Notes: generated by a model not told the origin, from the letters alone. A stretch of 64,000 nucleotides of DNA from Candidatus Tayloriibacteriota bacterium (GCA_028286725.1 JAQBQZ010000014.1:5051-69050); one strand, 5' to 3'; counted from the first letter of the stretch, positions 616 to 64,000 are shown. Made by a program: numbers and translations.

Positions 616-766
616 ACAACCGAATAAGCGCCTAACCCGTTAGTTTTCTAACGGTATGGCAACAAGTCAGGACATGAATAAAGAACCCATCATAGGGGTC
701 GCATGTCCTGCCGTGTGGGGAAACCTGCACGAGTAGCTTCGGCTACTACCTTGTGGTGGGCTTTTT
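616..766 (+). ncRNA. Structured leader or small RNA candidate: three hairpins, the last capped with UUCG and followed by a T-run
   Basis: Hairpins ccgttag/ctaacgg (637-654), gtcaggacatg/catgtcctg (666-710) and cacgag-gtagc-UUCG-gctac-cuugug (728-755), then ttttt at 762-766. Sits directly upstream of the ORF starting at 770/794. Confidence 0.3.
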
Positions 767-32527: not shown

Positions 32528-32764
32528 ATGGCAAATAAAGTAATCATTTACAGTACACCGACTTGTACATACTGCAAGCATGTTAAAGAATTTTTCAAAG
32601 AGCATAATGTAGCTTATGAAGAATTTGATGTTGCGGCAGACAAGGATAAGAGAGCTGAGATGGTAGATAAGAGCGGGCAGCTTGGAGTACCAGTGACAGA
32701 TATTGATGGACAGATTGTTGTTGGATACGATGAGGCGACACTTAAACAGCTTCTCGCAATATAA
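32528..32764 (+). CDS. Glutaredoxin-like protein (NrdH/Grx family)
   Basis: VIIYSTPTCTYCKHVKEFF… CxxC thioredoxin-fold motif. 78 aa. Confidence 0.7.
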   Translation: MANKVIIYSTPTCTYCKHVKEFFKEHNVAYEEFDVAADKDKRAEMVDKSGQLGVPVTDIDGQIVVGYDEATLKQLLAI

Positions 32765-32816: not shown

Positions 32817-32890
32817 GCCCTTGTAGTTCAATGGATAGAACAGTCCCGTCCTAAGGGATAGATGCACGTTCGATTCGTACCAGGGGCACA
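32817..32890 (+). tRNA. tRNA-Arg (anticodon CCT)
   Basis: Hand-folded cloverleaf: acceptor GCCCTTG/CAGGGGC, D-arm GTTC-AATGGATA-GAAC, anticodon stem GTCCC/GGGAT with loop gTCCTaa, T-loop TTCGATT (one C-A mismatch in the T-stem). CCA not encoded. Confidence 0.7.
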
Positions 32891-32937
32891 GCGAACGAAG
32901 TGAGGTGTGACGGTGAGGAAGCCTGGGAGGCTTCCGT

Positions 32938-33034
32938 GTACGAATCGAAAACCTTTTGAGCCTAAAATGAGTTTACGAAATTTTAGCCAAAAGGTGTACT
33001 GAACCTGTAAGGTTCGATTCGTACCAGGGGCACA
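32938..33034. repeat. Inverted and direct partial copies of the tRNA-Arg T-arm and 3' acceptor end
   Basis: gtacgaatcgaa (32940-32951) is the reverse complement of ttcgattcgtac (32864-32875). gttcgattcgtaccaggggcaca is repeated directly at about 33012-33034. Structured spacer hairpins gaagcct-ggg-aggcttc and ctaaaat…attttag. Confidence 0.5.
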
Positions 33035-33061
33035 ATGTTATTTTTTTGATATACTTTATTT

Positions 33062-34318
33062 ATGAAAATCTTAGTCATTGGAAGCGGGGGAAGAGAAAAT
33101 GCACTCGCATGGAAACTCAAACAGTCACCAAAAGTAACTGGTCTTTTTGCTGCACCTGGAAATCCTGGTACAAAAGATATTGCGACAAATGTACCACTTA
33201 ATTCACAAAGAGAAATCATTGAATGGCTCAAACAAAATCGAATGGATCTTGTGGTTGTGGGTCCTGACAATTATCTCGCAGATGGAATTGTAGATGAAAT
33301 ACAAAATTTGGGTATCAAAGTATTTGGTCCAACCAAACTTGCGTCAGAGATCGAATGGTCAAAATCATACGCAAAAGATTTGATGAAAGAGATAGGAATT
33401 CCAACCGCATCTTTTGAAACGTTTACTGATTTTGAAAAAGCTTTGGAATATGTAAAACAAAATAAATTCCCGACCGTCATAAAAGCGAGCGGACTCGCAC
33501 TTGGTAAAGGGGTTATCATTGCAGAAAATTTTGATGAAGCCGAAAAGGCACTTAGAGAAATAATGACTGACAAAGTATTTGGCGAGGCGGGAGATGAGGT
33601 GGTGATCGAGGAATATCTCATGGGTCGTGAGATATCAACTCATGCATTTTGTGATGGTGAGACCGTTGTGATGTTTCCATCTTCACAAGATCATAAAAGG
33701 ATCTTTGAAGGGGATCAGGGTCCAAATACAGGAGGAATGGGAACGATTGCGCCTGTGCCATGGGTGACAGAGCAACATATCGAAGATATAAAAATACAAA
33801 TAGTGATTCCACTTATTCAGGCTTTGAAAAAAAGAGGGCGAGAATTCAAAGGTCTTTTGTTCCCGGGAATTATGATCACAGAGACCGGTCCAAAGGTGAT
33901 TGAATTCAATGCACGATTCGGAGATCCAGAAACTGAAAGTTATATGAGAATTCTTGAGGGTGATTTGGTAGATATTCTTTTGTCTTGTGTTGATGGAACT
34001 TTGAAAGATACAGCAATCAATTGGTCAAAACAATCCGCTGCCACAGTAATATGCGCATCAGGAGGATATCCTGGAAGTTATGAAAAGGGAAAAGAGATAA
34101 TAGGACTTGATAAAATAACCGATAATGATGTTGTTGTATTCCACTGCGGCACTAAACTTATTCAAGATAAGCTTGTTACAAACGGTGGGCGAGTGCTTGC
34201 GGTTACAGCTGTAGGAGATACAGTGTCAGATGCTCTGGCAAAATCCTATAAAGCAATAGAAGGAATTACTTTTGAAGGAATGCAATACAGAAAAGATATA
34301 GGGCAGAAATCTATTTAA
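33062..34318 (+). CDS. purD: Phosphoribosylamine--glycine ligase
   Basis: MKILVIGSGGRENALAWKL… ATP-grasp architecture; 418 aa. Confidence 0.9.
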   Translation: MKILVIGSGGRENALAWKLKQSPKVTGLFAAPGNPGTKDIATNVPLNSQREIIEWLKQNRMDLVVVGPDNYLADGIVDEIQNLGIKVFGPTKLASEIEWSKSYAKDLMKEIGIPTASFETFTDFEKALEYVKQNKFPTVIKASGLALGKGVIIAENFDEAEKALREIMTDKVFGEAGDEVVIEEYLMGREISTHAFCDGETVVMFPSSQDHKRIFEGDQGPNTGGMGTIAPVPWVTEQHIEDIKIQIVIPLIQALKKRGREFKGLLFPGIMITETGPKVIEFNARFGDPETESYMRILEGDLVDILLSCVDGTLKDTAINWSKQSAATVICASGGYPGSYEKGKEIIGLDKITDNDVVVFHCGTKLIQDKLVTNGGRVLAVTAVGDTVSDALAKSYKAIEGITFEGMQYRKDIGQKSI

Positions 34319-34877
34319 CACTCTCTAGTTTTTGTAGTAACTTTCTCATAAATCTATGAGTATTTTTGTTGAATTTTGAAATATCTGTATTTAGTATTTC
34401 TTTAAAATCAAACCATTTATATCCATTAAATTCTCCAGGGTCAAAAATAATCTTATTTTTTGAATCTCCATTTAATATGTACCATAAACTTACATCAGTA
34501 TGTCCGGCAGTTTTGCCGACGGTTATGTCTTCTGTGAGAAAAAGAGGCTCAGGATTTATAAAATTAGCCGCAATATTTAATTCCTCTTTGATTTCTCGCT
34601 CAACCGTAGTTTTAGGATGCTCATCTTTTTCTATGTGACCGCCAGCAGGCAACCATAATTCTGCTTTGATATGATCCATGAATAGTATTTTCCTTTCATT
34701 TAAATCAATGAGAGTAAAAAAGGAGACGAGATGTTTTGGTGGTATAGCCGGCTTTTTAATTCGAAATATCTCTTCGCCACTATTTATCCACTCAATCGTA
34801 TTGTTGATCTGCAAAGCTTCCAGATCATCATACGGTTCTATCGATTCAATTATTTTTCTTATTTCGTCTCGCATGTT
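34311..34877 (-). CDS. NUDIX hydrolase
   Basis: Nudix box AGGHIEKDEHPKTTVEREIKEELNI. Start trimmed to the internal Met (track ORF runs to 34925) so it does not overlap the purN 3' end. Confidence 0.65.
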   Translation of the reverse strand, partial: NMRDEIRKIIESIEPYDDLEALQINNTIEWINSGEEIFRIKKPAIPPKHLVSFFTLIDLNERKILFMDHIKAELWLPAGGHIEKDEHPKTTVEREIKEELNIAANFINPEPLFLTEDITVGKTAGHTDVSLWYILNGDSKNKIIFDPGEFNGYKWFDFKEILNTDISKFNKNTHRFMRKLLQKLESVK

Positions 34878-34878
34878 T

Positions 34879-35523
34879 TTATTTCTCAATATCCGCACCG
34901 CGCATTGATTCTGGATTCTTCCCATCCCAACTTATTTCTCCATTTACTATTCGATTAGTAATAATTGGCTGCCATTTGTGTTCAAGCGCATTCACTCGAG
35001 CGAACAATGTTTCTGCTGTGTCATCAGGAAGTATCTCGACTTTTCGTCGGAAAAAGATTGCGTTCGGATCATCGTAGGTGTCAGTTACAAAATGCATTGT
35101 GACACCTGTGTATGTGAGCTCTCCTTTTTTGTATGCATCAATCACAGCTTCATGAATGTGATGTCCGTAAAATCCAGTACCTCCAAATTGAGAGGGAAGG
35201 AATGCGGGATGAATATTAAAAGTTTTTTCAGGAGGCAATCCTTCAACAAACCCAAGCCAACCTGAGAGGGCTACGAAGTCTGCTCCGGTCTCTTTATAGA
35301 TTCTTTTGTAGTCTTCCGCAGCTCTGCCTTTTGGAGAATATATAAAAGGGATGTTGAATTTGGCGGCTTTTGCTTTCACTCCGCCGTTTTCGTGATTTGA
35401 TACGACACCGACGATCTCAGCACTTAAAACCCCATTTTGACTTGCTTCACAGAGTTTTTGGAAGCCTGAGCCTCCTCCATCTTTGGATCCTGAAGCGAAT
35501 ATGAGAAGTTTTGGCTTGCGCAT
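34879..35523 (-). CDS. purN: Phosphoribosylglycinamide formyltransferase
   Basis: LLIFASGSKDGGGSGF…NIHPAFLPSQFGG…HHIHEAVI. 214 aa. Confidence 0.8.
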   Translation of the reverse strand: MRKPKLLIFASGSKDGGGSGFQKLCEASQNGVLSAEIVGVVSNHENGGVKAKAAKFNIPFIYSPKGRAAEDYKRIYKETGADFVALSGWLGFVEGLPPEKTFNIHPAFLPSQFGGTGFYGHHIHEAVIDAYKKGELTYTGVTMHFVTDTYDDPNAIFFRRKVEILPDDTAETLFARVNALEHKWQPIITNRIVNGEISWDGKNPESMRGADIEK

Positions 35524-35621
35524 GGATTTAACTATAGCATATTCTGTGTTGTAATTACTCCATTGTTGTGCCTGCCTTTATGCTCGGGTATACTAAATGG
35601 TATAAACTAAATACTAATAAA

Positions 35622-38591
35622 ATGGCTTCACGGATCATTATTTCTCAAAAAGTTAGAGATGCCAGAGCAGAAACTAAAAAGATTCAGTTCAATTCTTTGA
35701 ATCTAAAAGGAAAGATAAATGATGTACTCGTTCTCGATTCATATACAATAGATACAAATATAAAAAGCGATGCTCTTACAAAAATTGCATCTGCACTCAC
35801 AAACAAAATTCTTGAGGATGGAACAATAGGAAAGCTTGATCTCAAGAATGCATTTGATTGGATTCTTGAGATTGGATTTTTGCCTGGTGTTACTGACAAT
35901 ATTGGAACAACAACAAAAGAAACAATTGAAGATCTTCTAAAATTTAAATTCTCCGAATCTGTGTATTTTTCACAGATTTTTATTTTGTCTGGAAATATTT
36001 CAAGACAAGAAGTTGAAACTATAGGGCTAACATTGCACAACCCGCTCATTCAAAGAATTCGAATCAAAAGCTATGCTGAATTTGTAAAAGAAAAAGATCT
36101 TGAAATTTTGGTTCCAAAAGTAAATCTCAAATCTGAAGACGCTGTGATCGAAGTCAATTTGAATGTGACAGATGAAGAACTCATAAAGATCGGTAAGGGA
36201 GGGGTTGTAGATAAAAATGGGATCTCACGAGGACCGCTCGCACTCGATTTGGCGTATATGAAAGCGATTCAGGAATATTTTAGATCAAAGAAAAGAAATC
36301 CGACAGATATTGAGCTTGAATCAATTGCGCAGACTTGGTCTGAGCATTGTAAGCATACGATCTTTGCAGATAAGCTCGACGAGATAGATAAGGGTCTTTA
36401 CAAAACATATATCAAAGAGGCTACTAATATCATTAGAAAAAAGAAAGGCAAACGCGATATTTGCGTTTCTGTTTTTTCCGATAATGCTGGAGCGATCGCA
36501 TTTGATGATAAATATTTAGTAACTCACAAAGTTGAAACTCATAACAGTCCATCAGCTCTTGATCCATTTGGAGGATCTATCACGGGTATTGTAGGGGTAA
36601 ACCGCGATACGATTGGATTTGGTCTTGGTGCAAAACCTGTTGCAAATATGTACGGATTTTGTCTTGCGGATCCATCTGACACTCGTGCGCTTTTCCGAGA
36701 CAAAAATCTGACACAAAAGATGCTTTCTCCAAGGCGAATTATGGATGGAGTGATTGCTGGAGTGAATGTGGGTGGAAACTGTTCTGGTATTCCAACTCCG
36801 CACGGCTTTGTATATTTTGATGAACGATTCAGAGGCAAGCCGCTCGTGTTCGTGGGAACTGTTGGCATCATTCCAAGAAAGATCGGCAAGAACTTTTCTA
36901 CTGAAAAGGAAGCAAAGAAAGGAGATTGTATTGTTGTGATTGGTGGTAAGGTGGGACAAGATGGAATCCATGGTGCCACATTCTCATCTGAAGTGATGGA
37001 TGGTGCGAGTCCTGCGACCGCTGTACAGATCGGCGATCCCATCACTCAGAAAAAACTTTCTGATGCGATTGTCAAAGAAGCAAGAGATTTAAATTTGTAT
37101 TCAAGTATTACTGACAACGGTGCAGGAGGAATCTCTTGTTCGATCGCTGAGATGGCAAAGGAGTGCAATGGATGTAAGGTAGAGCTTGAGAAAGTTCCGC
37201 TCAAATATCCAGGCCTCACTCCTTGGAAAATATGGATATCAGAATCACAAGAGAGAATGACGCTTGCAGTGCCAAAATCAAAGTGGAAGGCATTTAAAAA
37301 ACTTATGGATATGCGAGGTGTTGGCGCAGATGTTGTTGGAGAATTCACCAACTCTGGCAAATGTGTTGTGACATACCACGGCAAGAAAATCGTTGATATG
37401 GATCTCGAGTTTCTTCATAACGGATTACCTTCAAGAAATCTTGTATCAAAAGATGAAAAGATAACTTACCTTGAAGCACCAAAGCAAACATCGAAAGACC
37501 TGACAAAGATTGTGAAAGATATGCTTAAGAGACTGAATATCACAAGCTTTGAATTTATCTCAAAGCAATATGACCACGAGGTGCAGGCGAATTCAATTTT
37601 GAAACCTCTTCAGGGGCGAGGGCAAGTGAATGCAGATGTTGCTGTGATTCGTCCGGTGCTCGATTCCAAAAAAGGGGTGCTTCTCTCATCGACTTTAAAT
37701 CCAAGTTATTCAGAAATAGATAGCTACAAGATGGCTGCATCTTCAATTGATGGTGCAATACGTAGTGTCATTGCGGCAGGAGGAGATATTGAAAACCTCG
37801 CAATTCTCGACAATTTCTGCTGGTGCAGTTCAACGGATCCTGTAAGATTGGGACAGCTGAAGTCTGCTGTAAAGGCGTGTTTTGATTATGCTGTTGCATT
37901 TGGTACGCCATTTATTTCTGGCAAAGACAGTATGTTCAATGACTTTAAAGGATATGATGAAAAGGGGAATCTCATAAACATTTCTATTCCACCCACACTT
38001 CTCATTTCGTCTATAGGGGTAATGAATGATGCCGAAAAGGCGATCTCGCTTGACTTTAAATTCGAAGGAGATCTTGTGTATGTATTGGGGGGTACTTTAG
38101 AGGAACTTGGAGGATCAGAATATTTTAAATATGTAAGTGAAAAGACAAAGAAAGAATTTATTGGCAACATTGTGCCAAGTGTGGATGCGGTTAAAAATAT
38201 GAAACTTTACAAAGCGTTTACAAAATGTGCAAACAAAGAATTAGTAGCAAGCTCAATAAGTATCGGAAGAGGAGGGCTTGCTGTCGCTTTAGCTAAGTCT
38301 AGTATAGGTGGAAAGCTTGGGGCAGAAATAGAGCTAAAGAAAATCTCAAAGAAAACTTCGGGCGATGATAGGGCACTCTTTTCTGAAAGTCAGGGGCGAA
38401 TACTTGTAAGTATAAATCCAAAGAACAAAAAAACTTTTGAGGATATAATGAAAGGCAATAGCTTTACGCAGATCGGTAAAGTATCAAAAGATTCGAAGTT
38501 TATAATCAAAGGACGGGATGGAAACGAAATTGTAAACGCTGGTATTGATGCCTTACTGACAGATTATAAATCTACTTTTAAAAACTTCTAA
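35622..38591 (+). CDS. purL: Phosphoribosylformylglycinamidine synthase, PurS-like N-terminal region fused to PurL (PurSL)
   Basis: PurL synthetase core from about residue 210 (GPLALDLAYMKAIQEYF…SEHCKHTIF…) preceded by about 210 aa. Start set to ATG 35622 downstream of a TATACT -10 box; track ORF begins at 35568. Confidence 0.8.
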   Translation: MASRIIISQKVRDARAETKKIQFNSLNLKGKINDVLVLDSYTIDTNIKSDALTKIASALTNKILEDGTIGKLDLKNAFDWILEIGFLPGVTDNIGTTTKETIEDLLKFKFSESVYFSQIFILSGNISRQEVETIGLTLHNPLIQRIRIKSYAEFVKEKDLEILVPKVNLKSEDAVIEVNLNVTDEELIKIGKGGVVDKNGISRGPLALDLAYMKAIQEYFRSKKRNPTDIELESIAQTWSEHCKHTIFADKLDEIDKGLYKTYIKEATNIIRKKKGKRDICVSVFSDNAGAIAFDDKYLVTHKVETHNSPSALDPFGGSITGIVGVNRDTIGFGLGAKPVANMYGFCLADPSDTRALFRDKNLTQKMLSPRRIMDGVIAGVNVGGNCSGIPTPHGFVYFDERFRGKPLVFVGTVGIIPRKIGKNFSTEKEAKKGDCIVVIGGKVGQDGIHGATFSSEVMDGASPATAVQIGDPITQKKLSDAIVKEARDLNLYSSITDNGAGGISCSIAEMAKECNGCKVELEKVPLKYPGLTPWKIWISESQERMTLAVPKSKWKAFKKLMDMRGVGADVVGEFTNSGKCVVTYHGKKIVDMDLEFLHNGLPSRNLVSKDEKITYLEAPKQTSKDLTKIVKDMLKRLNITSFEFISKQYDHEVQANSILKPLQGRGQVNADVAVIRPVLDSKKGVLLSSTLNPSYSEIDSYKMAASSIDGAIRSVIAAGGDIENLAILDNFCWCSSTDPVRLGQLKSAVKACFDYAVAFGTPFISGKDSMFNDFKGYDEKGNLINISIPPTLLISSIGVMNDAEKAISLDFKFEGDLVYVLGGTLEELGGSEYFKYVSEKTKKEFIGNIVPSVDAVKNMKLYKAFTKCANKELVASSISIGRGGLAVALAKSSIGGKLGAEIELKKISKKTSGDDRALFSESQGRILVSINPKNKKTFEDIMKGNSFTQIGKVSKDSKFIIKGRDGNEIVNAGIDALLTDYKSTFKNF

Positions 38592-38592
38592 C

Positions 38593-39393
38593 ATGGCAAA
38601 CAAAAAAGTTAAAGTATTGGTGTTTTCGGGATATGGGCTCAACTGCGAAGAAGAGACCAAATATGCTTTTGAATTGGCGGGAGGTGATGCCGATATTGTG
38701 CATATCAATGACCTCATCGCAGGTATAAAGAAGATCAAAAATTATGACATCCTTGCTTTCCCCGGAGGGTTTTCTTTTGGTGATGATACAGGAAGTGGGA
38801 AGGCGTACGCAAACAAGGTTCGAAATCACTTATGGAAAGATATCGAAGAATTCATTGCCAAAGACAAGCTTATTATTGGAATTTGTAATGGATTTCAGAT
38901 TCTTACAAATCTAGGTATTCTTCCAGGAGCTTTGATGTGGAATGATAGCGCTCGATATATCGACCGATGGGTTGATATCAAGATAGAAGGCAAGAGTCCG
39001 TGGCTTACAGGTATCGACACGATCTCACTCCCGATCGCACACGGCGAAGGAAAATTCTATACAGATACTGAGACATTGAAGAAAATCAAAAATGAGAATG
39101 CGATTGTTGCTCGATATGTCAAAGGCGAGACTTGTGAAATGACAGGACTATCCTCGAATCCTAATGGAGCTCTTGAAGATATTGCTGGCGTACTAGGCAA
39201 TAATGGAAATATCATCGGTATGATGCCACATCCAGAAAGAGGATTGTTTGTATCTCAATTACCAAACTTTCCATATCTAAAAGAAAAAAGTAGAAGAGAC
39301 GGAAAGAAGCTCCCTAAATATGGTCCTGGTTTTCAGATATTTAAAAACGCAGTGGAATATTGTGCTAGAACCCGTCTCAAAATTAACCGTTAA
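38593..39393 (+). CDS. purQ: Phosphoribosylformylglycinamidine synthase glutaminase subunit
   Basis: KVLVFSGYGLNCEEETKYAFELAG…GICNGFQIL…MMPHPER class-I glutamine amidotransferase triad. Confidence 0.85.
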   Translation: MANKKVKVLVFSGYGLNCEEETKYAFELAGGDADIVHINDLIAGIKKIKNYDILAFPGGFSFGDDTGSGKAYANKVRNHLWKDIEEFIAKDKLIIGICNGFQILTNLGILPGALMWNDSARYIDRWVDIKIEGKSPWLTGIDTISLPIAHGEGKFYTDTETLKKIKNENAIVARYVKGETCEMTGLSSNPNGALEDIAGVLGNNGNIIGMMPHPERGLFVSQLPNFPYLKEKSRRDGKKLPKYGPGFQIFKNAVEYCARTRLKINR

Positions 39394-39552
39394 TTAAATT
39401 CAGATGCAACTTGAATATTCAAAAGCTAAAATTTCGGTAAAAAATAAAGTTTCGTCAGTCAACATAACGCAGTTATGCCTCCTTCCTCATCCTTCATTTT
39501 TTTCTCGAAATTTTAGCTTTTCTATTATTCATTAATTTTGAGATGGATTCTA
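39375..39552. mobile_element. MITE-like palindromic element, copy 2 (inverted relative to copy 1, diverged)
   Basis: Reverse complement aligns to the 9643-9836 element: tagaatc…caaaattaatgaa…aaggatgaggaaggaggc…gactgacgaaact…ttttttacc…aacggttaatttt. Its own inner 16-bp IR aaaagctaaaatttcg/cgaaattttagctttt shows compensatory changes. One end overlaps the purQ stop. Confidence 0.45.
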
Positions 39553-39563
39553 AAAAATAATTT

Positions 39564-39995
39564 ATGGATTCAGTAAATAATAGACCAACAGTTGGAATGG
39601 GTGTGGTTATTTTTAAAGGAAATAAGATACTTTTGGGTAAAAGAAAAAGCTCAATTGCTGGAGGATTGTATGCAAGTCCCGGTGGCCATGTCGAGTACAT
39701 GGAAACATTTGAGGAGTGCGCTATACGAGAAACTCGTGAGGAGTGTGGTATTGAAATTCAAAATGTTCGATTTCAAAGATTGGCAAATGTAATGGCTTTC
39801 AAGCCGAAACATTTTGTTGATATTTCTCTTATTGCAGATTGGAAATCTGGAGAACCTCAAAATTTAGAACCAGATAAAAATGAAGGATGGGATTGGTATG
39901 ATTTAGATAATTTACCCACAAACCTTATGGCGACTACGAAACTCACTCTTGAAAGTTGTAAAACTGGCCAGATGTATTTTCCTTTAATTGATTAA
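39564..39995 (+). CDS. NUDIX hydrolase
   Basis: Nudix box GGHVEYMETFEECAIRETREECGIEI. Confidence 0.7.
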   Translation: MDSVNNRPTVGMGVVIFKGNKILLGKRKSSIAGGLYASPGGHVEYMETFEECAIRETREECGIEIQNVRFQRLANVMAFKPKHFVDISLIADWKSGEPQNLEPDKNEGWDWYDLDNLPTNLMATTKLTLESCKTGQMYFPLID

Positions 39996-40001
39996 TAATA
40001 T

Positions 40002-41126
40002 ATGCAAAAAATTGGAATTATCGGTGGAGGGCAGCTCGGGAGAATGCTTGTAGAGGCGGCTAAGAATCTTGGGTTCTATACTGTGGTTCTCGATCCAACT
40101 CCAAATGGGCCTGCAGCACAAGTGGCAGACAAAGAGATTATCGGTGATTTTAAAGATGCATCAAAAATAAAAGAAGTTGCAGATCAGGTAGATTTTGTGA
40201 CATTTGAGATCGAGTCTGCGAATGCAGATGCATTGAATGATCTCGTGGGAGAAGGAAAAGACATCAATCCTCATCCAAAGATCTTGGAAACAATAAAAGA
40301 TAAATATCTTCAGAAAAAGTTTTTGGAAAAAAACGGAATCCCGGTCGCTGATTCGGTTGAAGTAAGTGATGAGGAAGAAATAAAAAAAGCAGGAACTGTA
40401 TTTGGATATCCATTTCTTCTTAAAGCACGAAAAGATGCATACGACGGGAGAGGAAATGCTTTAATAAAAAATGAAATTGATATAAAAGATGGAATAGTAA
40501 AGCTTAAAGATCGAACACTCTATGTAGAGAAATTTGTTCCATTTGTGAAAGAACTTGCTGTGGTCGTGGGACGATCAAAGAATGGAGAGGTCAAAGTATT
40601 TCCAGCTGTTGAAACGATTCACAAAAATAATATCTGCCATATTGTCATTTCTCCTGCACCTGTTAAAAAAGATATTACACAAAAAGCAGAAGAACTCGCG
40701 ACAAAAATAATAGCTGACTTTAAAGGTGTAGGAGTATTTGCTGTTGAAATGTTTTTGACAGAGAAAAATGAACTTGTAATAAATGAGATCGCACCTCGAG
40801 TACATAATTCTGGACATCATACAATTGAAGGCAACAAGACTTCGCAATTCGAACAGCATATTCGAGCAATTACGGGGATGCCTTTGGGAGACACTGGCCA
40901 CACAGCCCCGTTTTCAGTAATGATAAATATCTTGGGTGAAAGAAGTGGAGAGGTAAAACTCGAGGGTGAAGAAAAGTTGAATGAAATTAAGGGTGCGACC
41001 ATGCATATATACGGTAAGTCCGAGACTCGTCCAGAGCGAAAAATGGGGCACATCACGGTTGTGGGTGATGATCTTATAGAGGTCTTGGAAAAAGCGAGAC
41101 TCGCTCGGTCAATTATTTCAATTTAA
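40002..41126 (+). CDS. purK: N5-carboxyaminoimidazole ribonucleotide synthase (ATP-grasp)
   Basis: MQKIGIIGGGQLGRML… and an ATP-grasp C-terminus. 374 aa. Confidence 0.8.
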   Translation: MQKIGIIGGGQLGRMLVEAAKNLGFYTVVLDPTPNGPAAQVADKEIIGDFKDASKIKEVADQVDFVTFEIESANADALNDLVGEGKDINPHPKILETIKDKYLQKKFLEKNGIPVADSVEVSDEEEIKKAGTVFGYPFLLKARKDAYDGRGNALIKNEIDIKDGIVKLKDRTLYVEKFVPFVKELAVVVGRSKNGEVKVFPAVETIHKNNICHIVISPAPVKKDITQKAEELATKIIADFKGVGVFAVEMFLTEKNELVINEIAPRVHNSGHHTIEGNKTSQFEQHIRAITGMPLGDTGHTAPFSVMINILGERSGEVKLEGEEKLNEIKGATMHIYGKSETRPERKMGHITVVGDDLIEVLEKARLARSIISI

Positions 41127-41128
41127 TT

Positions 41129-41989
41129 TTGAATCTTCTTATGTCTGACTTGATCAAAATAGTAGAAGACAGTCGAGATAGAGCCACACAAGTGGCTTTA
41201 GATTCAATATCAGATTTGATAGGTTCTTCTGAAATTGAAGTGCGAGACAGGATCCTCTCAAAGATTGCAGAACAAAAAATATTCTTCCCCTTAGGATGGT
41301 ATGATCCACCGTTCGGGGGAGTGGCTGTGCTTTTTGGAAATGATCCGTATGACAGACTAAAATTTGAAACTCTTCGAGATCCACTTTTCTCTCCAAGTGA
41401 ATCAGATTTTTATAATAAAGAGAGCGTCGGCATCGTCTATTTGTCTCCTATTGAAAAAGAAACAGGGATGATCGGGGACATTGGATTCACGATCTATAAT
41501 GGTAGAGATGAGAAAATAAAAACTCATATTCGAGATTGTTATAATTTGTTAATCGAGGTTGCAAACTTTGCAGAAGTTGGGCAGTCATTTGGTGATCTAT
41601 ATACTTATGCAATGGATGTATTTGTAAACAAGGGGCAAAAAAGAATTGGCTGGATGTCTACCAATATCTGGAAAGCAACAAATGATGATAAGAGAAAAAT
41701 AAATTTTGGACACACGATTCCTGGGTCTTTTGATAATTTGAATCTTGGAAACTCTTTTGATGAAATAAAGGAAAATATTAGAACAAAAAGAATTTTTATT
41801 GAAGAAATTGAAACATTTAAAATTCCAGATACCTGTGCGTTTACACTCGAAGCCAGATTGACAGACAGGGATCATATTTTACCGAACACATTCTTTCATT
41901 TTGTGGTTGTTTTTAATGATGGTAAAAAGAAAATATTGGCTAATTTTAGCGAAATTTTTATAAAGACAGGTATGGATTATATGCTATAA
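41129..41989 (+). CDS. Uncharacterised 286-aa protein embedded in the pur operon between purK and purE
   Basis: Starts 3 nt after the purK stop and ends 8 nt before purE. No recognisable motif. Confidence 0.4.
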
Positions 41990-41996
41990 TCGATTT

Positions 41997-42512
41997 ATGG
42001 AAAAACCACTAATAGGCATAATTATGGGCTCGGATTCTGATCTTGCGGTAATGCACGAAGCGGCAAAGATCATTGAAGAATTCGGTGTAGAATTCGAGAT
42101 AACTATTGTCTCAGCGCACAGAACTCCTGACAGGCTTGTAGAATATGCAAAAGGGGCAGAGAAAAGGGGGCTTAAGGTCATTATTGCGGGTGCTGGAGGC
42201 GCAGCACACCTTCCTGGAATGACAGCAAGTATGACAGTGCTTCCGGTGATTGGAGTGCCTGTGAAGGGTAAGAATCTTGAAGGGATGGATTCACTACTTT
42301 CGATCGTTCAAATGCCCGGAGGAATACCTGTTGCAACGGTGGCTATAAATGGCGCAAAGAATGCCGGACTTTTAGCGCTTCGAATTCTTGGCACTTCAAA
42401 TAAAACCCTTCAAGAAAAATTGGCCTTGTATGCAAAAAAAATGGAATCAGATGTAAAAGAAAAGGCAGAAAAATTAGAAAAGAATGGGTATGTTAATTAT
42501 TTAGGACTATAA
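41997..42512 (+). CDS. purE: N5-CAIR mutase
   Basis: [13 protein letters not shown]…[14 protein letters not shown]…. Confidence 0.9.
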
Positions 42513-42518
42513 AATTTT

Positions 42519-43673: not shown

Positions 43674-43685
43674 TAATTAAATATT

Positions 43686-47019: not shown

Positions 47020-47115
47020 ATTGTTTGGTTACTCTACCAGAAAATTGCTATTTGTATAGAGGTGGATAATGTTGTTTGTAAGACTTAAATTGGGATATAA
47101 TATGTTTCTAATTAT

Positions 47116-57599: not shown

Positions 57600-57850
57600 A
57601 AAAGATTGGCACTTCGTGCCCCTGCAGATTTGTACTCAAATGTGCTTTGGGGTCGCACGAAGTTTCGATTGAGAGGATTTTCATATAAAAAGTGATGGTC
57701 TACGTGGAGATTCGAAACTTACAGTTTCAGTATACCTTTTGAGTCTACGGGGAGATTCGGTCACAGATAATTTTCTGGTGAAAATTTCTGCGACCCCGAC
57801 TCCTCCGCCTTCGCGGAGTCCGTCTTTCGACTCATTTTTTAAAGCAATCC
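57600..57850. other. GC-rich non-coding stretch with direct repeats and long-range complementarity (decayed mobile DNA or structured RNA)
   Basis: Two about 20-nt direct repeats gtctacgNggagattcg (about 57698 and 57751). ggggtcgca (about 57649-57657) is complementary to tgcgacccc (about 57790-57798). Small hairpins ggcac-ttc-gtgcc and ctccgc-cttc-gcggag. No ORF above 30 aa. Confidence 0.3.
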
Positions 57851-58048
57851 CATTGCTTTAAAAATTCAAAATATCTTCGATATTTATGAGCCCATTGTAC
57901 CTTGAATGGAACACAGTAGAAAGCACGGTTTTAGAGTGGAAACAGGCTTTTGAACTTATGGGACGACAATGGATCGTTGCCTGATTCCTTTAAAACAAAG
58001 CCATTTTTGCGATATGCCGACTCGGCATCATTACCTCTCTGGGTATAG

Positions 58049-58492
58049 AACTCTATCATTATCAATGTATGTAAGGAAGTAGAGCACGGCATCCGTTTTA
58101 TTTACGCAGACAGCGCCGGAAAGTTTGAAAACATCGCACTGCAGAATGCTCTCAGCTCTGCAAACGATGGCAGAGGCGTTCCTTGCAAAGTGATCGAGGT
58201 AGTTTTCTCAAAAGAGAAAGACGAAATGGTGGGCAATTTGCGAGCTCACTTCGAGCAAGGGAAGATAAAGCTACCAAAGAAATATCGCGATGCCTTCTAC
58301 CAGTTTAAAAACTATCGATACCAAGAGGGCACCGACAAGCCAGTGAAGAAAGACGACCACATCCCCGACTCGACAATGTGCGCACTCCAGCACTTCAAAC
58401 TCGGACAGGTGAAATTAATCAGAACAGTGATTCACTTTCACCATTGGAGTTTTTGTAGCTTTTTATTGATATATTCTTTATTTGCAAGGTAA
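58049..58492 (+). pseudogene. Remnant of a phage terminase large subunit (C-terminal nuclease domain only)
   Basis: Open frame after a stop at 58046-58048 reads …GIRFIYADSAGKFENIALQNA…VIEVVFSKEKDEMVGNLRAHFEQGKIKLPK…KDDHIPDSTMCALQHF. The N-terminal ATPase domain is absent. Visibly GC-richer than its surroundings. Confidence 0.5.
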
Positions 58493-58555
58493 AAAGGGTG
58501 TTTTGCCATCAAACCCTATGGTGATTAACCGTGATTTTAAAGGGTGTATGGCAGT

Positions 58556-59227
58556 TCAAAAACTATCTTGTATGTTGGCGATCGCTGTCCGTCTTACGAT
58601 ATCCCGGAGTTCTTCATAAGTAAGTGAAATATCTAGAGATATCCTTCTTTTCTTACCTTTCTTGCCAAGACTGCTCGATGTGATAAATCCCCAGTCTGTA
58701 TACCCAGCACGTTTAATTTTATCTGCCTCATTAGGCAGGGAAAAACTATAATAATCCTCGCCGTGGACCGCTTGATTTCTTATTTCATAGAGAATCCTTA
58801 AAATAGAGCTAAACCTGAGACTGTGGTGCTTTGGACTTAGCAGGGTTCTTGTAAATCCTAATAAGATTTTTTCTTTATCTTGCTCTGAGGTAAAGGCAAA
58901 GAATCTTTTTATTGCATCAAACGATCCGATCGCATTTCTTCCAGTTTTCATTTTTGTAACTGCTTCAGCCAAAGCAATTAGGAAAATTATTTTAAGTGCA
59001 GGTCTATTTTGTCTTACTAGTTCTTGATCGTCCGCAATATCCAAATACCACTGAGCACGCAAAAGCATACGCCGAGTTTTTAATTTTCTTAAACACTTTT
59101 TTATAAACTTTTTACGCTCCTCCTTATCTGCAAGCAGCGGTGTCAAAAACTGATGGAGCTCAGTGTCTTCAACAAGCGCTTGTCTGGTTGCGTCCTCAAC
59201 AGGTTTCCATATAGATGAAGTTGCCAT
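58556..59227 (-). CDS. HEPN-like (Rx4H) all-alpha protein, Abi_2 / Swt1 / DUF4145-like; candidate effector
   Basis: 223 aa with the motif LYEIRNQAVHGE (R-x4-H, with Asn after Arg) in a predicted helical context. Starts 14 nt downstream of the 697-aa gene on the same strand. Confidence 0.5.
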   Translation of the reverse strand: MATSSIWKPVEDATRQALVEDTELHQFLTPLLADKEERKKFIKKCLRKLKTRRMLLRAQWYLDIADDQELVRQNRPALKIIFLIALAEAVTKMKTGRNAIGSFDAIKRFFAFTSEQDKEKILLGFTRTLLSPKHHSLRFSSILRILYEIRNQAVHGEDYYSFSLPNEADKIKRAGYTDWGFITSSSLGKKGKKRRISLDISLTYEELRDIVRRTAIANIQDSF

Positions 59228-59241
59228 GTGTTTACAATAAA

Positions 59242-61335
59242 TTATTTATTCCAATCTACAGGCTGGATATGAATATTTACACTCCTCATCTCATCATAGA
59301 GTTTTTTTAGTTCTGTTTTGACTCTTTCTTTATCCTCTTCAGGAACCTGAGCGTAGCTTTCAAATATCTTAGGAATGTCCCCGATGTATGTTCCACCCAC
59401 AAGCCATATCTTTTTGAGATTATTTACAAGTTTCAGTAACCTATCAGGTTCATTTGTCAGGAGAGCAACAATTTCCTCTGTTCCATTTACCCACGCTTGG
59501 TGCCTCTCCTCCGGATGATCTTTAAGGCGTATTTTCAGAAGCTCAGCCATTTTCTCAAACAGGTCTTTTGCGTCTTCTGGAGCAATAATCGCTAATTGCT
59601 CAAAAACCAGTCCAAACATCGAGGCGATGTCAGAGTCATAGCCGTTCGCCCAAAACAACAAAACATACTCTCGTATCTGATCGTAGGGCAACATCTTTTC
59701 TTCTAGCATTTTCCAAAAATGCCACGTAAGCGAAGACTTCAGGGCTGGTTTCCCATTAGCTATTTGATCTTTTAATATAGCTTCAAAAACTCTTGGGTTA
59801 AAAGTTCCCATTCGGGGAAAGTCATTCTTTCGAAATAATGCGAAGTATGGAATAAGTGCAGCTAGATCGTGTAAGACATCATCATGCTCGGTAGCAATGC
59901 AGGCATGTAATACCTCTTCCGCTTCTGCTTCTGTTAAATCTCTGAACATAAGAAAAATATTCAACAGCGCTTCTATTACGCGCGGATACTGAGCATTGTC
60001 TCGTAACATTTTTAAAGGCATCTTTCTTACAAGATCACGCTCCTCCTGTTTCCAATCAAAAGGATTTCCGTCTTGATTTTTTATGGCATCTTTTCTTTTC
60101 ACAAGTTCTATAAGGGGGTAGGTTGCTTGAGCACGAATGTAAAGATTATCTTCCAATACATAGCGTTGAATGATCTCAATTATTTCTGTGTAGTATTCTG
60201 GTTTATTCTTGGCAACTATTCGCGACATAAGCCAGCATAGATTTCCGCGCACAGTAGTTATATTCCGCACGTCTTCATTTCTTAAAGCTCGAGCATGATA
60301 ATTGTGTTCTCCCTCAGGATCGTCTGGGTCATTTGCACCAGACGGATTAGGGTTGGGGTCATTTTGAAGCATTCTTACTACCCACATTGCATCATCAATG
60401 CGCTCGTCAGGAAACTCTTGCGCAAAACGGATTAGGTTTTCTTTTGCGCCATTATCAGATAGCCAATCAAGGTTGCCAGAAGCTGTACCTACAGTTTTTA
60501 CAAAGTCGAAAGCGTTTTCGCTTTTATCATCAAGTTGGCTCCTCAGGTATCCCATAAGAAGTTTAAGGGCGTCAGGATTTTCTACATTCGCTCTTGCTTT
60601 TATTGCATCAACAACAGAACGATCAAAGATAAGTGAAAAGTTATTTTGATTTTCCTCAAAATATATCTTGTCTATATTTTCAAACTTTTCAAAATCAAAA
60701 GAAGAGAGTGCTCGAATAGCGGCATGAGTATCAACAAAGAACGCCCAATTTACTACCAATAAAACTCTTTCGTGGTCTTCCACATCAACTTGCTTATTTT
60801 TTGTAGGCAATTTATCAATGAAACTTGTTGTTGCTGCGCCCCTACTATCTACTGATCTGACACCATCACTGTACGACAGAGAAATATTTTCTAAGGATTC
60901 TATTTTATGAAACTTAAATCCCTCATGATCAAACTTTTTCACAGTCGGGTTATCTTTTATTCCTTTTTCTATAACATCTGCCATTATCACAGAATTAGCC
61001 TGCATCTGATTTTTCTTAAAAGAAAATCTGGGAGTATAAACAAGATATCCCTTCAACCCTCTCTTTTTAATTTCTTCTCTGAGTAGTCCTGTAAATTGGT
61101 GCCAAAATTGGCTCCGAGCGAGATCTTCTTCATTTTCAACAAGACGAAAAATCTCTACCGCAACTTTTTCGTTGTTTTCATTTTGAAGTTGATAGTCAAA
61201 GTTTTTTCCTGACTTTACAACAACATCTCTGTTCGTAATACCGTAAGTGAGTTGTCGATTTTGACTCAGATATTCTCTAAATCTTTCTATCGCTTCCTCT
61301 TCCCATTGATCTTTTGCCATTCCTGCATTATGCAA
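59242..61335 (-). CDS. Large uncharacterised protein (697 aa), partner of the HEPN-like gene
   Basis: N-terminal about 330-aa mixed domain, a Pro/Asn/Asp-rich linker (PNPNPSGANDPDDPEGEH), and a C-terminal about 330-aa helical-repeat region. No Walker A or other known catalytic motif. Confidence 0.5.
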   Translation of the reverse strand: MHNAGMAKDQWEEEAIERFREYLSQNRQLTYGITNRDVVVKSGKNFDYQLQNENNEKVAVEIFRLVENEEDLARSQFWHQFTGLLREEIKKRGLKGYLVYTPRFSFKKNQMQANSVIMADVIEKGIKDNPTVKKFDHEGFKFHKIESLENISLSYSDGVRSVDSRGAATTSFIDKLPTKNKQVDVEDHERVLLVVNWAFFVDTHAAIRALSSFDFEKFENIDKIYFEENQNNFSLIFDRSVVDAIKARANVENPDALKLLMGYLRSQLDDKSENAFDFVKTVGTASGNLDWLSDNGAKENLIRFAQEFPDERIDDAMWVVRMLQNDPNPNPSGANDPDDPEGEHNYHARALRNEDVRNITTVRGNLCWLMSRIVAKNKPEYYTEIIEIIQRYVLEDNLYIRAQATYPLIELVKRKDAIKNQDGNPFDWKQEERDLVRKMPLKMLRDNAQYPRVIEALLNIFLMFRDLTEAEAEEVLHACIATEHDDVLHDLAALIPYFALFRKNDFPRMGTFNPRVFEAILKDQIANGKPALKSSLTWHFWKMLEEKMLPYDQIREYVLLFWANGYDSDIASMFGLVFEQLAIIAPEDAKDLFEKMAELLKIRLKDHPEERHQAWVNGTEEIVALLTNEPDRLLKLVNNLKKIWLVGGTYIGDIPKIFESYAQVPEEDKERVKTELKKLYDEMRSVNIHIQPVDWNK

Positions 61336-61428
61336 TAAATATCTTCATATTTCTAGGAGTCATCATAGGTCTCAGTAAATGCTTTGTTTACTTCGTAATT
61401 TTCAGTTAAAAGTGCTAAACTCTTATTT

Positions 61429-63801
61429 ATGAATGAGGCATATTCACGCGTCATTATCGATAAGAAACTCAGAGAAGCTGGGTGGGATATTGAGGATCCT
61501 GCCCAAGTCATTTTTGAAGATCACGGTGATGCAGGACGTGCCGACTATGTGCTCAAGGATTCCTCTGGACATGCTATCGCCCTCATTGAGGCAAAACGCC
61601 CAGACGTAGATCCGTACAGCGCCAAGAAGCAGGCGTTTGATTATATTCAAGCTCAATATCCAAAAGTTCGCTTCATTTATCTTGCTAACGATAAGTTGGT
61701 GTATTTATGGGACCTCGATGGAGGAGGAGATGCGCAGATCGTGCCAGCTTTTTTCTCTCGTGAGGACTTAGTGCGTCGTCAGAGCTCACGAGCAATGAAT
61801 CTTGCAAAGAAGTTTAGCGAGGAGAAAGTCACAGAAGGATATTTCAGCGACGTAGCAGACAATGTCACTCTCCGACCATATCAACTCGCAGCATGGGAAT
61901 CGATAGCCGAAAATTATGATAAAGGTAAGCATGCATTCTTGCTCGAGATGGCAACGGGTACTGGCAAGACGGTTTTAGCTTCACTTATCATCTCGCGTTT
62001 TTTGCGTACCAATAATGCTCAGAATGTTTTATTTTTGGTGGACCGCAAATCTCTCGCAATTCAAACTAAAAATACTTTTGAGAAATTGCTTCGAGGTGTT
62101 TCTGCTGTCGGCACATACTGGGGATCAAACAGAAAAAACCTCACAGGTGCAAATGTTGTTGTCGCTACAATTCAGTCTTTGATGCTCCACGGTACTCGGG
62201 ACTTTTCTCCCGGCTATTTTGATTTGATTATTCACGATGAGGCGCATAGAAGCATTTACTCGCCTGAGGCACGTGCAGCTGTAGATCATTTTGTCGGAGC
62301 TACAAAGATTGGACTTACAGCAACACCTCGAGATTTCTTAAAAAATATTAGCGTAGAGAAACTTTCAGAGAAGGACCCTCGTAAATTGGAGCGCCGTGTG
62401 CAACGAGATACGTATCGATACTTCGGCTGCGATGATGGAGTGGCAACTTACCGATACACAATCCAAGATGGAGTAGCTGAAAAGTTTTTGATCCCACCGA
62501 AGTATCACAAGATGAATACTTCGGTCACTCAGCAGGCACTTTCGGAAGAAGGAATAACTGAGCTGTCGGACGTAGAACTTGAGGAGGGAGAAAGCATCAA
62601 GATCCGTGACCTTGAAAAGAAAGTACACTTTCCAGTTCGCAATCGCCGCATGATGGAGGAGTTTCTTGAGCATGCTCTTCGCACACCCGATGGAGAGATT
62701 GGTAAGACTCTTGTTTTTGCAGTATCACAGGATCATGCGCTGGCACTTGAAAAGATTTTGAATGAACTGAAACCCGAATACGGCGGCAGATTCGCTATGA
62801 CCATTACTTCACGTGTACAAGGAGCACATGACATCGCTAAAGACTTTGCTCGAGACACAAACAAACTTCCACGTATCGGTGTGACAGTAGACATGCTTGC
62901 TACAGGTTTTGATTGTCCTGAGATCTTGAACATCCTCTTTGCTCGCCCTATTTTCGATCCAATCACATATCAGCAGATCAAGGGTCGTGGTACACGGCTT
63001 TGCCCAGCGATCGGCAAGAAAGAGTTTGTTGTTTTCGACTTTTGTGGAGTCGTAGCCTACTTTGACGAAAAGTACGACTGGGAAGCTCCGGCGAGATTGG
63101 CGCGTGAGGGAGGCTTTGCCACGGGGTTGGCTAATGGAGCGATTGAAGGAGGTTCAAGCAACGTGAGCGAAAATGAGGGCATTTCTGAGCCTCGTGTGTC
63201 CCAAACCCCTGACGTAGTTCTCACCCGAGACGTTATGACCCTGCCTGAGGGCGACACTGTCGACCGAAATATGTACCGTGACGAATGGACGAAAGCGGTC
63301 CAGAGCTTCATGAGCAACAAGACCAAAATGGTATCTGGTGCACTCGAAGATCCAGAGAAAGTCGAGGAGCTCATCGAGGAAATCAACACCACCCTCCTAA
63401 ACAAACCTAGACTTTATTTCAATGAAGAAAACTTGCAGGAGTCACATCGCATTGTTGCTGGTATTCGTGAGTTCTTTTTGTCAGCGATCGGTCGGCAGTC
63501 ACTCCCGACTCGTGATGAGCAGCTAGCTTCATTCAAAGAAGCTCTCATAAACAAGTTTGCTAAGACAGACAATCCCGAGAGCTCTTTCAAAAGAGCTGTG
63601 ATGGTGGAGTTTATCGCAGACCAAGCAATTTCAAACGACAAGTTTCGAACTACGGTCCAAGCAAATCCAACTCTCGACTTCCTGCGGTGGGATGAGTTCG
63701 CTCAGGCATACTCCGTTACAGAATGGCTTGACGTATTTTCAAAAGAGGAGCTAACTGAGCTCGTGTCGGATATTTCAAACGCAAAGATTTTGACACTATA
63801 A
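61429..63801 (+). CDS. hsdR: Type I restriction enzyme R subunit-like (HsdR_N nuclease plus DEAH helicase)
   Basis: N-terminus …IIDKKLREAGWDIED…GRADYVLKDSSGHAIALIEAKRP… (HSDR_N PD-(D/E)xK). Helicase motifs MATGTGKT, LFLVDRKSLAIQ, IIHDEAHRS, TATPRD. GC-richer than flanking host genes. Confidence 0.75.
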   Translation: MNEAYSRVIIDKKLREAGWDIEDPAQVIFEDHGDAGRADYVLKDSSGHAIALIEAKRPDVDPYSAKKQAFDYIQAQYPKVRFIYLANDKLVYLWDLDGGGDAQIVPAFFSREDLVRRQSSRAMNLAKKFSEEKVTEGYFSDVADNVTLRPYQLAAWESIAENYDKGKHAFLLEMATGTGKTVLASLIISRFLRTNNAQNVLFLVDRKSLAIQTKNTFEKLLRGVSAVGTYWGSNRKNLTGANVVVATIQSLMLHGTRDFSPGYFDLIIHDEAHRSIYSPEARAAVDHFVGATKIGLTATPRDFLKNISVEKLSEKDPRKLERRVQRDTYRYFGCDDGVATYRYTIQDGVAEKFLIPPKYHKMNTSVTQQALSEEGITELSDVELEEGESIKIRDLEKKVHFPVRNRRMMEEFLEHALRTPDGEIGKTLVFAVSQDHALALEKILNELKPEYGGRFAMTITSRVQGAHDIAKDFARDTNKLPRIGVTVDMLATGFDCPEILNILFARPIFDPITYQQIKGRGTRLCPAIGKKEFVVFDFCGVVAYFDEKYDWEAPARLAREGGFATGLANGAIEGGSSNVSENEGISEPRVSQTPDVVLTRDVMTLPEGDTVDRNMYRDEWTKAVQSFMSNKTKMVSGALEDPEKVEELIEEINTTLLNKPRLYFNEENLQESHRIVAGIREFFLSAIGRQSLPTRDEQLASFKEALINKFAKTDNPESSFKRAVMVEFIADQAISNDKFRTTVQANPTLDFLRWDEFAQAYSVTEWLDVFSKEELTELVSDISNAKILTL

Positions 63802-63804
63802 ATT

Positions 63805-64000
63805 ATGGATACAATTTCACTCTACAAAAGCAGAATCGATGGATTGATGGACATACTCTTCGGAGCAGGAGTATCAAATCCTCAGACAATCATCGAGCAA
63901 CTAAACTATTTACTTTTTTTACGAGCTCTTTCAATCAAAGATGATGAGGCTGAGCTACTTGGAATTACAGATGAATCAGAAAAGATTTTTTCAGGAGAGC
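63805..64000 (+). CDS. hsdM: Type I restriction-modification methyltransferase subunit, N-terminus only (runs off the window)
   Basis: MDTISLYKSRIDGLMDILFGAGVSNPQTIIEQLNYLLFLRALSIKDDEAE resembles the HsdM N-terminal domain. Starts 4 nt after the hsdR stop. Confidence 0.5.
   Translation, partial: MDTISLYKSRIDGLMDILFGAGVSNPQTIIEQLNYLLFLRALSIKDDEAELLGITDESEKIFSGE

Follow-up and report, generated by a model that had tools for sequence, protein, structure and literature searches.

Directly behind a tRNA-Arg(CCT) gene of a Candidatus Tayloriibacteriota genome lies a 144-bp unit, made of 121 bp of unique, non-coding DNA and one 23-bp repeat of the tRNA 3' part. This block is a member of a recurrent, defined and structured family located at tRNA genes of CPR bacteria, and is not a random deletion remnant. 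It is best read as a miniature, non-coding and cargo-less integrative element, or a minimal scar, resulting from site-specific recombination that is likely of the serine-recombinase type, and we put the probability of this reading at about 0.6. The block has a fixed anatomy, recurs at other loci, is missing from empty sites in relatives, co-varies with its local tRNA and is co-located with serine-recombinase islands. The initial annotation of this locus had proposed the footprint of an integrase-mediated insertion with almost no cargo left. The footprint fits the data best, in view of the ends of the repeats, the empty sites, the homologous blocks and a motif at island borders. Near such sites only large serine recombinases were found, in place of classic tyrosine integrases, and none of them inside the block.

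Anatomy of the block behind tRNA-Arg(CCT)

The window, i.e. the whole stretch of 64,000 nucleotides that was analysed, contains in this order a glutaredoxin gene (32528-32764), the glutaredoxin terminator, tRNA-Arg(CCT), the block and a purine-biosynthesis cluster. The following features were delineated.

32817..32889 (+): tRNA-Arg(CCT), apparently intact, identified by ARAGORN; Rfam tRNA model, 55.2 bits at 32817-32888
32868..32890 (+): direct repeat DR1, GTTCGATTCGTACCAGGGGCACA, tRNA positions 53-73 plus CA, part of the functional tRNA
32891..32916 (+): linker of 26 nt, GCGAACGAAGTGAGGTGTGACGGTGA
32917..32935 (+): hairpin P0, GGAAGCCTGGGAGGCTTCC
32938..32949 (+): inverted copy (IR) of 12 nt, GTACGAATCGAA, antisense of tRNA positions 54-65
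32951..32995 (+): long hairpin P2, ACCTTTTGAG...CAAAAGGT
32989..33011 (+): conserved arm, AAAAGGTGTACTGAACCTGTAAG, with 21/23 identity to a second copy in the window
33000..33016 (+): small dyad or hairpin P3, TGAACCT-GTA-AGGTTCG, whose 3' arm is formed by the first bases of DR2
33012..33034 (+): direct repeat DR2, a perfect 23-nt copy; the purD start codon follows 27 nt further on
33062-48675: purine cluster with purD, purN-like, purL, purQ, purK, purE, purM-like, purC, purB and purF-like genes

The tRNA-Arg(CCT) and the 12-nt inverted and 23-nt direct copies of its 3' part, as first described, were confirmed by ARAGORN, Rfam and a repeat search; the repeats themselves stand, and their original positions were off by one base. 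The direct repeat extends from within the T-loop to 2 nt beyond the discriminator, and CCA is not encoded. An 18-mer of the repeat matches just 2 sites in the 64 kb with 3 mismatches allowed, and as 0.03 matches would be expected by chance, a chance origin of the direct repeat is ruled out. The IR covers the T-loop and the 3' strand of the T-stem, and is 100% complementary to TTCGATTCGTAC in both direct copies. The T-stem (GCACG/CGTAC) has a single mismatch, C50.A64, of which A64 is common to both direct repeats and is matched by the inverted copy. These positions 50/64 correspond to window positions 32866/32880, and in L127 positions 51/63 are A.C. Relatives show wobble pairs in the T-stem (U.G in L209; G.U in L128 and L077) that give way to C.A in the window and A.C in L127, and these two both carry the element.

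The antisense of tRNA positions 52-65 is present as DNA, but is split by P2. It forms one arm of a split 14-nt perfect palindrome, which reads GTACGAATC-GAA, P2 plus GTACT, GAA-CC, TGTAA and the sense copy GGTTCGATTCGTAC. Parts of the insert are unique within the 64 kb; the arm motif has one further copy, also at a tRNA-like end. A 30-nt stretch of the arm, AAAAGGTGTACTGAACCTGTAAGGTTCGAT, is identical in the window and in L215. The hairpin-forming character attributed earlier to the spacer was corroborated by RNA folding, with z-scores of -5.1 for 32817-33060 and -3.4 for the trailer alone.

No recombinase or other ORF lies inside the 121-bp block. The possibility that the linker is a remnant of a recombinase C-terminus was discarded, as its antisense translations showed no similarity to that tail (...GTPKLS..FELSS..PDK). 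In Rfam 15, at the gathering threshold as well as at E <= 10, the tRNA model was the only match in the window region, the second copy, L127, L082 and L079. A degenerate second tRNA gene was rejected, the acceptor 5' strand, the D arm and the anticodon arm being absent, and so was an attenuator of purD or tsaD, because the downstream genes vary among loci.

The best genome matches to PurD are 67-70% identical and carry labels of Saccharibacteria, Patescibacteria and other CPR groups, as do many weaker matches. None of the 30 genome loci fetched for synteny has a tRNA upstream of purD. In L127 the region 3' of tRNA-Arg differs, with a small membrane protein gene and tRNA-Phe in place of the purine cluster. 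Logan contigs from the same sample (SRR13312974) break at 32852 in the anticodon region (end of L032) and at 32985 in P2 (start of L001), and the anticodon loop is likewise where L206, a related contig, stops; this may reflect strain heterogeneity at this locus. The two breaks are the one hint at an excised circle or a restored empty site in the same population. Elsewhere in the window, a LOOT RNA (Rfam RF03000) was recognized at 629-747 (+), with 81.7 bits against a gathering score of 46.4.

Recurrence at tRNA genes and empty sites in relatives

A metagenome scan was anchored on the non-repeated 5' half of the tRNA and yielded at least 120 tRNA-Arg(CCT) loci, downstream of which copies of the 3' part were then sought. 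A second scan covered 259 tRNAs. Among the matches listed, the family comprises about 10 members. Three further tRNA-Arg(CCT) sites are occupied: L127, with a 21-nt repeat and a 12-nt inverted copy, GCGGGAATCGAA, that matches its own T-stem; L082, with a 49-nt repeat; and L079, with a 24-nt repeat and a shifted inverted copy of 10 nt. The second scan added a tRNA-Glu(TTC) (L094), whose repeat measures 18 nt and whose inverted copy, CCGGGAGTCGGA, measures 12 nt, together with simpler, repeat-only cases at tRNA-Thr, tRNA-Lys and tRNA-Gly. All repeats start within tRNA positions 51-57 and, L082 excepted, end at positions 74-76. Across independent loci the elements measure 121-190 bp with a constant layout, and their orientation is always that of their tRNA.

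A comparison of related genomes, suggested with the first description of the locus, revealed both occupied and empty sites. The tRNA-Arg(CCT) genes of L077, L207 and L209 lack the block, the next gene being 7-40 nt away, and that of L214 is also without it. The L077 tRNA shares its first 49 nt with that of the window, yet its site is empty. In L207 and L209 the glutaredoxin-tRNA synteny is kept, with upstream glutaredoxin genes 87% and 80% identical, respectively. The arrangement is thus patchy and does not behave as a conserved single RNA gene of these relatives, which the initial annotation had held out as the opposing outcome.

Some units lie in tandem. At L082 659-860 (-), the intact tRNA-Arg is preceded by a decayed one that has a hairpin in place of its anticodon arm. 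The T-loop of the decayed copy is broken exactly after G53 by an element that ends in GTACTGA and has no first repeat; the intact tRNA-Arg follows with an element of its own. Compared with L127, this tRNA segment is inverted relative to the flanking genes for glutaredoxin and a small membrane protein. Two other structures were observed in passing. In L089, within the 70 nt downstream of a tRNA-Lys (4932-5005, -), a second copy of the 3' part begins AAAGGTTCG, is interrupted in the T-loop by a 38-nt double hairpin and resumes with AGTCCTGCTGGGCGGACA; the 3' half is interrupted in the T-loop as in the window, but the insert is unrelated. In L127 (588-975), the element is followed by another structured repeat, twice in tandem (..CGGGGTCGCGAAAATT, hairpin, AATTATTTGTGACC) and with optional inserted hairpins, that resembles window ~57745-57800 (-), just upstream of the second motif copy.

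The shared order of parts is tRNA (1-53), repeat 1, a linker of 6-40 nt, P0, the inverted T-arm copy, P2, (G)TACTGA, P3 and repeat 2. A hairpin occupies the position of P0 in every member, and in L127 it is a perfect bidirectional terminator. The closing stem of P2 is conserved and its apical part varies freely (45 to ~120 nt in relatives). At the four IR nucleotides that face the T-stem, the window, L127, L094 and L215 agree with their own tRNA and L212 nearly does; in element B of L082 the agreement is poor (2/5). Overall, the T-stem-facing bases fit the local T-stem in five of six tRNA contexts.

A motif search with TACTGA-N4-GTA-N4-TCGAWTC did not require the N4 blocks to be complementary. 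They were fully complementary in all five non-viral matches available at first (the window and L082 with two each, L127 with one), and later also in L212 and L215 (3 copies). Over nine sequences, the pairing in P3 amounts to 98.4%, all four variable pairs are compensatory, and none of 500 shuffles attained the observed score; the co-varying pairs include no G.U intermediates. RNAalifold predicted a three-way junction for five out of five modules, with the IR paired to repeat 2 in addition to P2 and P3, and with 13 pairs changed on both sides. Since the IR and the small dyad co-vary with the target tRNA, the structure matters, be it for DNA recombination or for an RNA. The IR may be an outer recombinase-binding motif, part of a folded att site or an RNA helix. 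In the attP of L079, rebuilt by hand, outer 10-bp inverted repeats surround a central region of ~21 bp.

Part of the conservation of the motif may be coding. In antisense the arm reads ..GIE.Y.FSTP(F/I)G.., with the changes between members at the third codon position, and if the L212 island were excised as predicted, the ORF of its recombinase would continue across the module.

In viral contigs, the pattern of inverted copy and repeat had no match; the motif pattern gave 53 matches, none with a complete 6/6 hairpin, and these were judged to be due to chance. That the motif was not found in viral contigs counts against a mobile element. No description of the unit was found in the literature on CPR tRNA introns, Saccharibacteria integration, miniature integrative elements or serine recombinases at tRNA genes.

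Serine-recombinase islands and the position of the crossover

The second copy of the arm, which has no tRNA, lies between tsaD and a defence island, and an inverted copy was sought for it in the window without success. The features of this region are given below.

57697..57760 (-): second, tRNA-less arm copy, CCGAATCTCCCCGTAGAC, TCAAAAGGTATACTGAAACTGTAAG and TTTCGAATCTCCACGTAGACC, the tRNA-3'-half-like end
57886..64000: tsaD-adjacent island with defence-type genes
57886-57984 (+): pseudo-tRNA-half and short ORF
58190-58492: terminase-C fragment, weak match
58556-59227: Abi-like gene, weak match
within the island: ORF of 697 aa
61429-63801: HsdR-like helicase gene

Twelve nucleotides after the tRNA-like end of the second copy lies a 33-nt diverged duplicate of the tsaD 5' end (MKILSIETSCD; 57652-57684, -), 77 nt upstream of the real tsaD start (57574). 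In L212 the tRNA-like end is directly followed by tsaD, so that the tsaD locus of the window looks like a rearranged version.

An integrase elsewhere on the contig had been envisaged in the initial annotation. A Pfam scan of 57 of the 68 largest non-overlapping ORFs of the window, the other 11 of which include obvious housekeeping genes, detected neither an integrase nor a transposase, but a serine recombinase is encoded just past the window. On contig L210 (1-9262) the island continues with an HsdM/S fusion, a SHOCT protein and an ORF of 113 aa, and ends in a large serine recombinase. This enzyme has Resolvase and Recombinase domains, and its gene is cut by the contig end. At ~34 kb from the block it is the nearest recombinase, with 100% identity to a protein that NCBI lists for a 'Candidatus Taylorbacteria' metagenome-assembled genome.

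Homologues of this recombinase are abundant in the protein database at 47-64% identity, and the few with source names come from CPR groups; no PDB sequence matched. Resolvase and Recombinase domains were found in L210, L212 and L213, with a weak Zn_ribbon_recom match in L213. In all four homologues checked on long contigs, the 3' ends of the recombinase gene and of an oppositely oriented tRNA overlap, namely tRNA-His in L211 and tRNA-Glu in L212, L214 and L215; a fifth context, L213, has no tRNA. In L212, a 7-kb island separates tRNA-Glu from a further module, whose end matches the tRNA 3' part at 19/20 positions and stops 8 nt short of the tsaD start codon. In L215 (2500-3960, -), two almost identical ~200-nt segments, each starting at ..TCAC|AACGAAAAATTCC and each with a module, flank in tandem a 1.3-kb unit with two small membrane-anchored ORFs; inside each module the arm and the tRNA-like end are themselves duplicated in tandem. 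The recombinases beside the window and L215 loci are ~60% identical, though the 30-nt arm motif is identical. A distal repeat of the L211 island was not found in its 8-kb flank.

The L213 recombinase appears from its sequence to represent an uninterrupted, attP-like form. Its reading frame continues into a tail, ...PDKRQLV|THIIRDWKHLVEN..., whose antisense is a diverged tRNA 3' half ending in GGGTCACC. The same kind of pseudo-half is present at the far end of the islands of L212, L215 and the window, where it lies at 57912-57887 (-) and doubles as the start of a conserved ORF of 32-38 codons on the other strand. This island-edge ORF, (M/V)SP...(E/K)WNT(V/I)E..(V/I)L.WK, was observed at 57886-57984 (+) in the window, from 2649 in L212 and from 3954 in L215. 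As it resembles the C-terminal tail of the uninterrupted L213 recombinase, integration appears to split the recombinase tail. Comparison of L213 with L212 and L215 maps the island junction to ..TCAC| at the tRNA 3' end and, together with the window, suggests that the serine recombinases cross over at the extreme 3' end of the tRNA, with the module on the trailer side. The islands and mini-elements may therefore merely share a hot spot. The same comparison puts the module outside the island junction, and thereby weakens the idea that it forms the distal arm of the serine-recombinase islands.

The arms of the islands are diverged tRNA mimics, ~70% identical to the tRNA, and the repeats of the mini-elements are 100% identical. 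Large serine recombinases use attP and attB of about 40-50 bp that are symmetric about a 2-bp crossover. The P3 dyad has its centre at least 5 nt outside the repeat, and a simple palindromic attP was obtained from L079 alone. Two readings follow. The mini-elements may use serine-recombinase chemistry with repeat 2 as a tRNA-mimicking half-site, which explains why the repeats end at positions 74-76 and have about the length of one half-site (18-24 nt). Alternatively, they may derive from another system, with its crossover in the T-loop, and merely share the hot spot, which better explains the 100% identity of the repeats.

In the mechanism that we favour, site-specific recombination would have placed DNA behind tRNA-Arg(CCT), so that the complete tRNA would keep one copy of the sequence from T-loop to 3' end and a second copy would come to lie 144 bp downstream. 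The inserted DNA would have the layout of the CPR family, with linker, hairpin, inverted T-arm copy, long hairpin, AAAAGGTGTACTGAA arm and a dyad overlapping repeat 2. The enzyme is probably of the serine-recombinase type, and the most likely catalyst would be a large serine recombinase of the kind encoded ~34 kb further on in the same genome, acting in trans; the second repeat would then be a tRNA-mimicking half-site. We infer that the crossover would lie either in the T-loop or at the extreme 3' end. If the element is mobile at present, excision would join ...GATGCACGTTCGATTCGTACCAGGGGCACA directly to ATGTTATTTTTTTG, as in an empty site, and the circle junction would read ...CTGTAAG, the repeat and GCGAACGAAG.

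The suggested link between recombinase and mini-elements is positional. The second motif copy, which borders an island with Abi-like, restriction and terminase-fragment genes, and the recombinase homologues overlapping tRNA 3' ends (4/4) both speak for a mobile element. The lack of a recombinase inside or beside the block and the short common cores of characterised serine integrases argue against an element of the serine-recombinase type, and this model alone leaves unexplained why the island arms are only ~70% identical when the repeats of the mini-elements are perfect. Perfect repeats and co-varying helices could instead reflect selection on RNA or DNA structure, which also weighs against our preferred reading, as does the small number of members, about ten among the matches listed.

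In an alternative with a T-loop crossover, a tyrosine integrase or another recombinase would have integrated, at position 53/54, an element with a replacement tRNA 3' half that later lost its cargo and left a scar, the serine islands being unrelated neighbours at the same hot spot. All the repeat left ends lie in the T-loop, the 5' part of the decayed tRNA-Arg of L082 is broken right after G53 with the element directly adjoining, complete identity would be expected of a young attL/attR pair, and in L212 and L215 as well as in the window the module falls outside the junction of the serine recombinase. We nevertheless regard such a scar as unlikely. Neither the window nor the annotated island genes of L210 and L212 include a tyrosine recombinase, a full-length relative with a tyrosine integrase was not found, and random loss of cargo does not explain a constant architecture of 121-190 bp at independent loci.

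Other possible origins of the block and comparison with known systems

The block might also be a structured RNA of the host, co-transcribed with the tRNA and acting as an sRNA of the 3' trailer, as a device for processing or termination, or as a regulator directed against the T-arm, with the IR pairing to the T-arm and repeat 2 serving as a decoy. A structured tRNA-linked RNA had been named initially as the alternative to insertion, and the co-variation of IR and P3 with the target tRNA leaves it some standing, albeit as a rather improbable reading. Its fold is highly significant (z = -5.1), the three-way junction with its 13 doubly changed pairs and P3 are conserved through co-variation, the 30-nt motif does not differ between genomes with recombinases of only ~60% identity, and the orientation always follows the tRNA. 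An RNA gene of the host is difficult to reconcile with a patchy presence in close relatives, with tandem and decayed copies at island borders and with a copy that has no tRNA at all. In L127 the strong terminator separates the tRNA from the remainder, G.U intermediates are missing among the co-varying pairs of P3, and no Rfam family other than tRNA was matched.

A local duplication without recombinase, in which replication slippage or template switching at a T-arm quasi-palindrome made the direct and inverted copies, would automatically yield copies matching the local tRNA and would account for the antisense T-arm as an arm of the split 14-nt perfect palindrome. It is very improbable, as it explains neither the homology outside the tRNA (arm motif, closing stem of P2) across tRNAs and genomes nor the constant order of parts. 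A tRNA intron, i.e. an extended gene from 32817 to 33034 spliced in the T-loop, would agree with the minimum-free-energy fold of all five full-length units, in which the distal repeat is the partner of the 5' acceptor strand and the IR that of the proximal T-arm, but can practically be dismissed, since the first 73 nt already form a complete tRNA, relatives exist without the insert, no group I or II model of Rfam matched at E <= 10 and no bulge-helix-bulge geometry was seen by eye at the junctions. The 144-nt insert is also below the size of known self-splicing introns. Ribozymes and introns in general (hammerhead, group I/II, bulge-helix-bulge) were rejected for want of core motifs, by eye and in Rfam, and because the tRNA is complete unspliced.

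Returning to the integrative element, a bolder generalization would be that the tRNA genes of CPR bacteria are parasitised by a class of non-coding, 'attachment-site-only' units of ~150 bp, which resident large serine recombinases mobilise in trans. The arm of these units would fold as single-stranded DNA, cruciform or RNA, the antisense T-arm copy would rebuild the target duplex, and the target would be chosen by a complementarity that co-evolves with the tRNA and not by protein recognition alone. We hold this to be a speculation that is unlikely in its full extent. If mobile, the units would set the lower size limit among the site-specific integrative elements described, and would be non-autonomous partners of serine recombinases. 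With their tRNA 3' halves they would moreover provide a large uncharacterised clade of CPR recombinases with natural attP/attB pairs, of relevance to genome-engineering toolkits and to gene flow in very small genomes. The internal antisense copy that co-varies with the target tRNA could reveal a structural rule of target recognition. Even as mere scars, such tRNA-fragment blocks would mark mobile-element hot spots for the annotation of CPR genomes.

Among known systems, the integrative elements of tRNA genes with their attL and attR sites share with the block an intact tRNA followed by a direct repeat from the T-loop to the gene end, occupied and empty sites in relatives, and tandem accretion at one tRNA. 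The block differs by the absence of cargo and integrase and by its constant, structured layout of 121-190 bp, and the inverted T-arm copy is not a described feature of tRNA integration scars. SCC-like elements at rlmH that lack a recombinase are moved in trans by the CcrAB serine recombinases. In this system the 3' end of a housekeeping gene is targeted and restored, the direct repeats measure ~15-20 bp, and recombinase-less derivatives as well as tandem composite arrays exist. Here, by contrast, a tRNA 3' half serves as the target, the non-coding elements measure ~150 bp, and the link to a recombinase is positional only.

With the integrases of the phiC31, Bxb1 and A118 type the island protein shares the Resolvase and Recombinase domains and a weak zinc-ribbon match, and the repeat of the block is about as long as one half-site. 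In contrast to these, the four homologues of the island recombinase all abut tRNA genes, and the arm mimics ~25 nt of tRNA. The sites of characterised serine integrases mostly lie within protein genes and have short common cores (PMC10654092).

Cis-mobilisable or MITE-like elements are likewise small, non-coding and bounded by recombination-site sequence, with a candidate recombinase elsewhere in the genome. The block is not dispersed as a MITE would be, both copies in the 64 kb being tRNA-linked, and shows no target-site duplication of the transposase type. The 12-bp inverted pair at 32938-32949 and 33013-33024 could pass as terminal repeats, but copies the neighbouring tRNA. Finally, folded single-strand recombination sites are known from integron attC and CTXphi attP(+). 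The IR and the 5' arm of P3 can similarly be predicted to fold onto repeat 2, giving a duplex identical to the T-arm region of the target (positions 52-65) with a protruding hairpin; compared with the boxes of integron attC, the geometry is different and the folding is a prediction.
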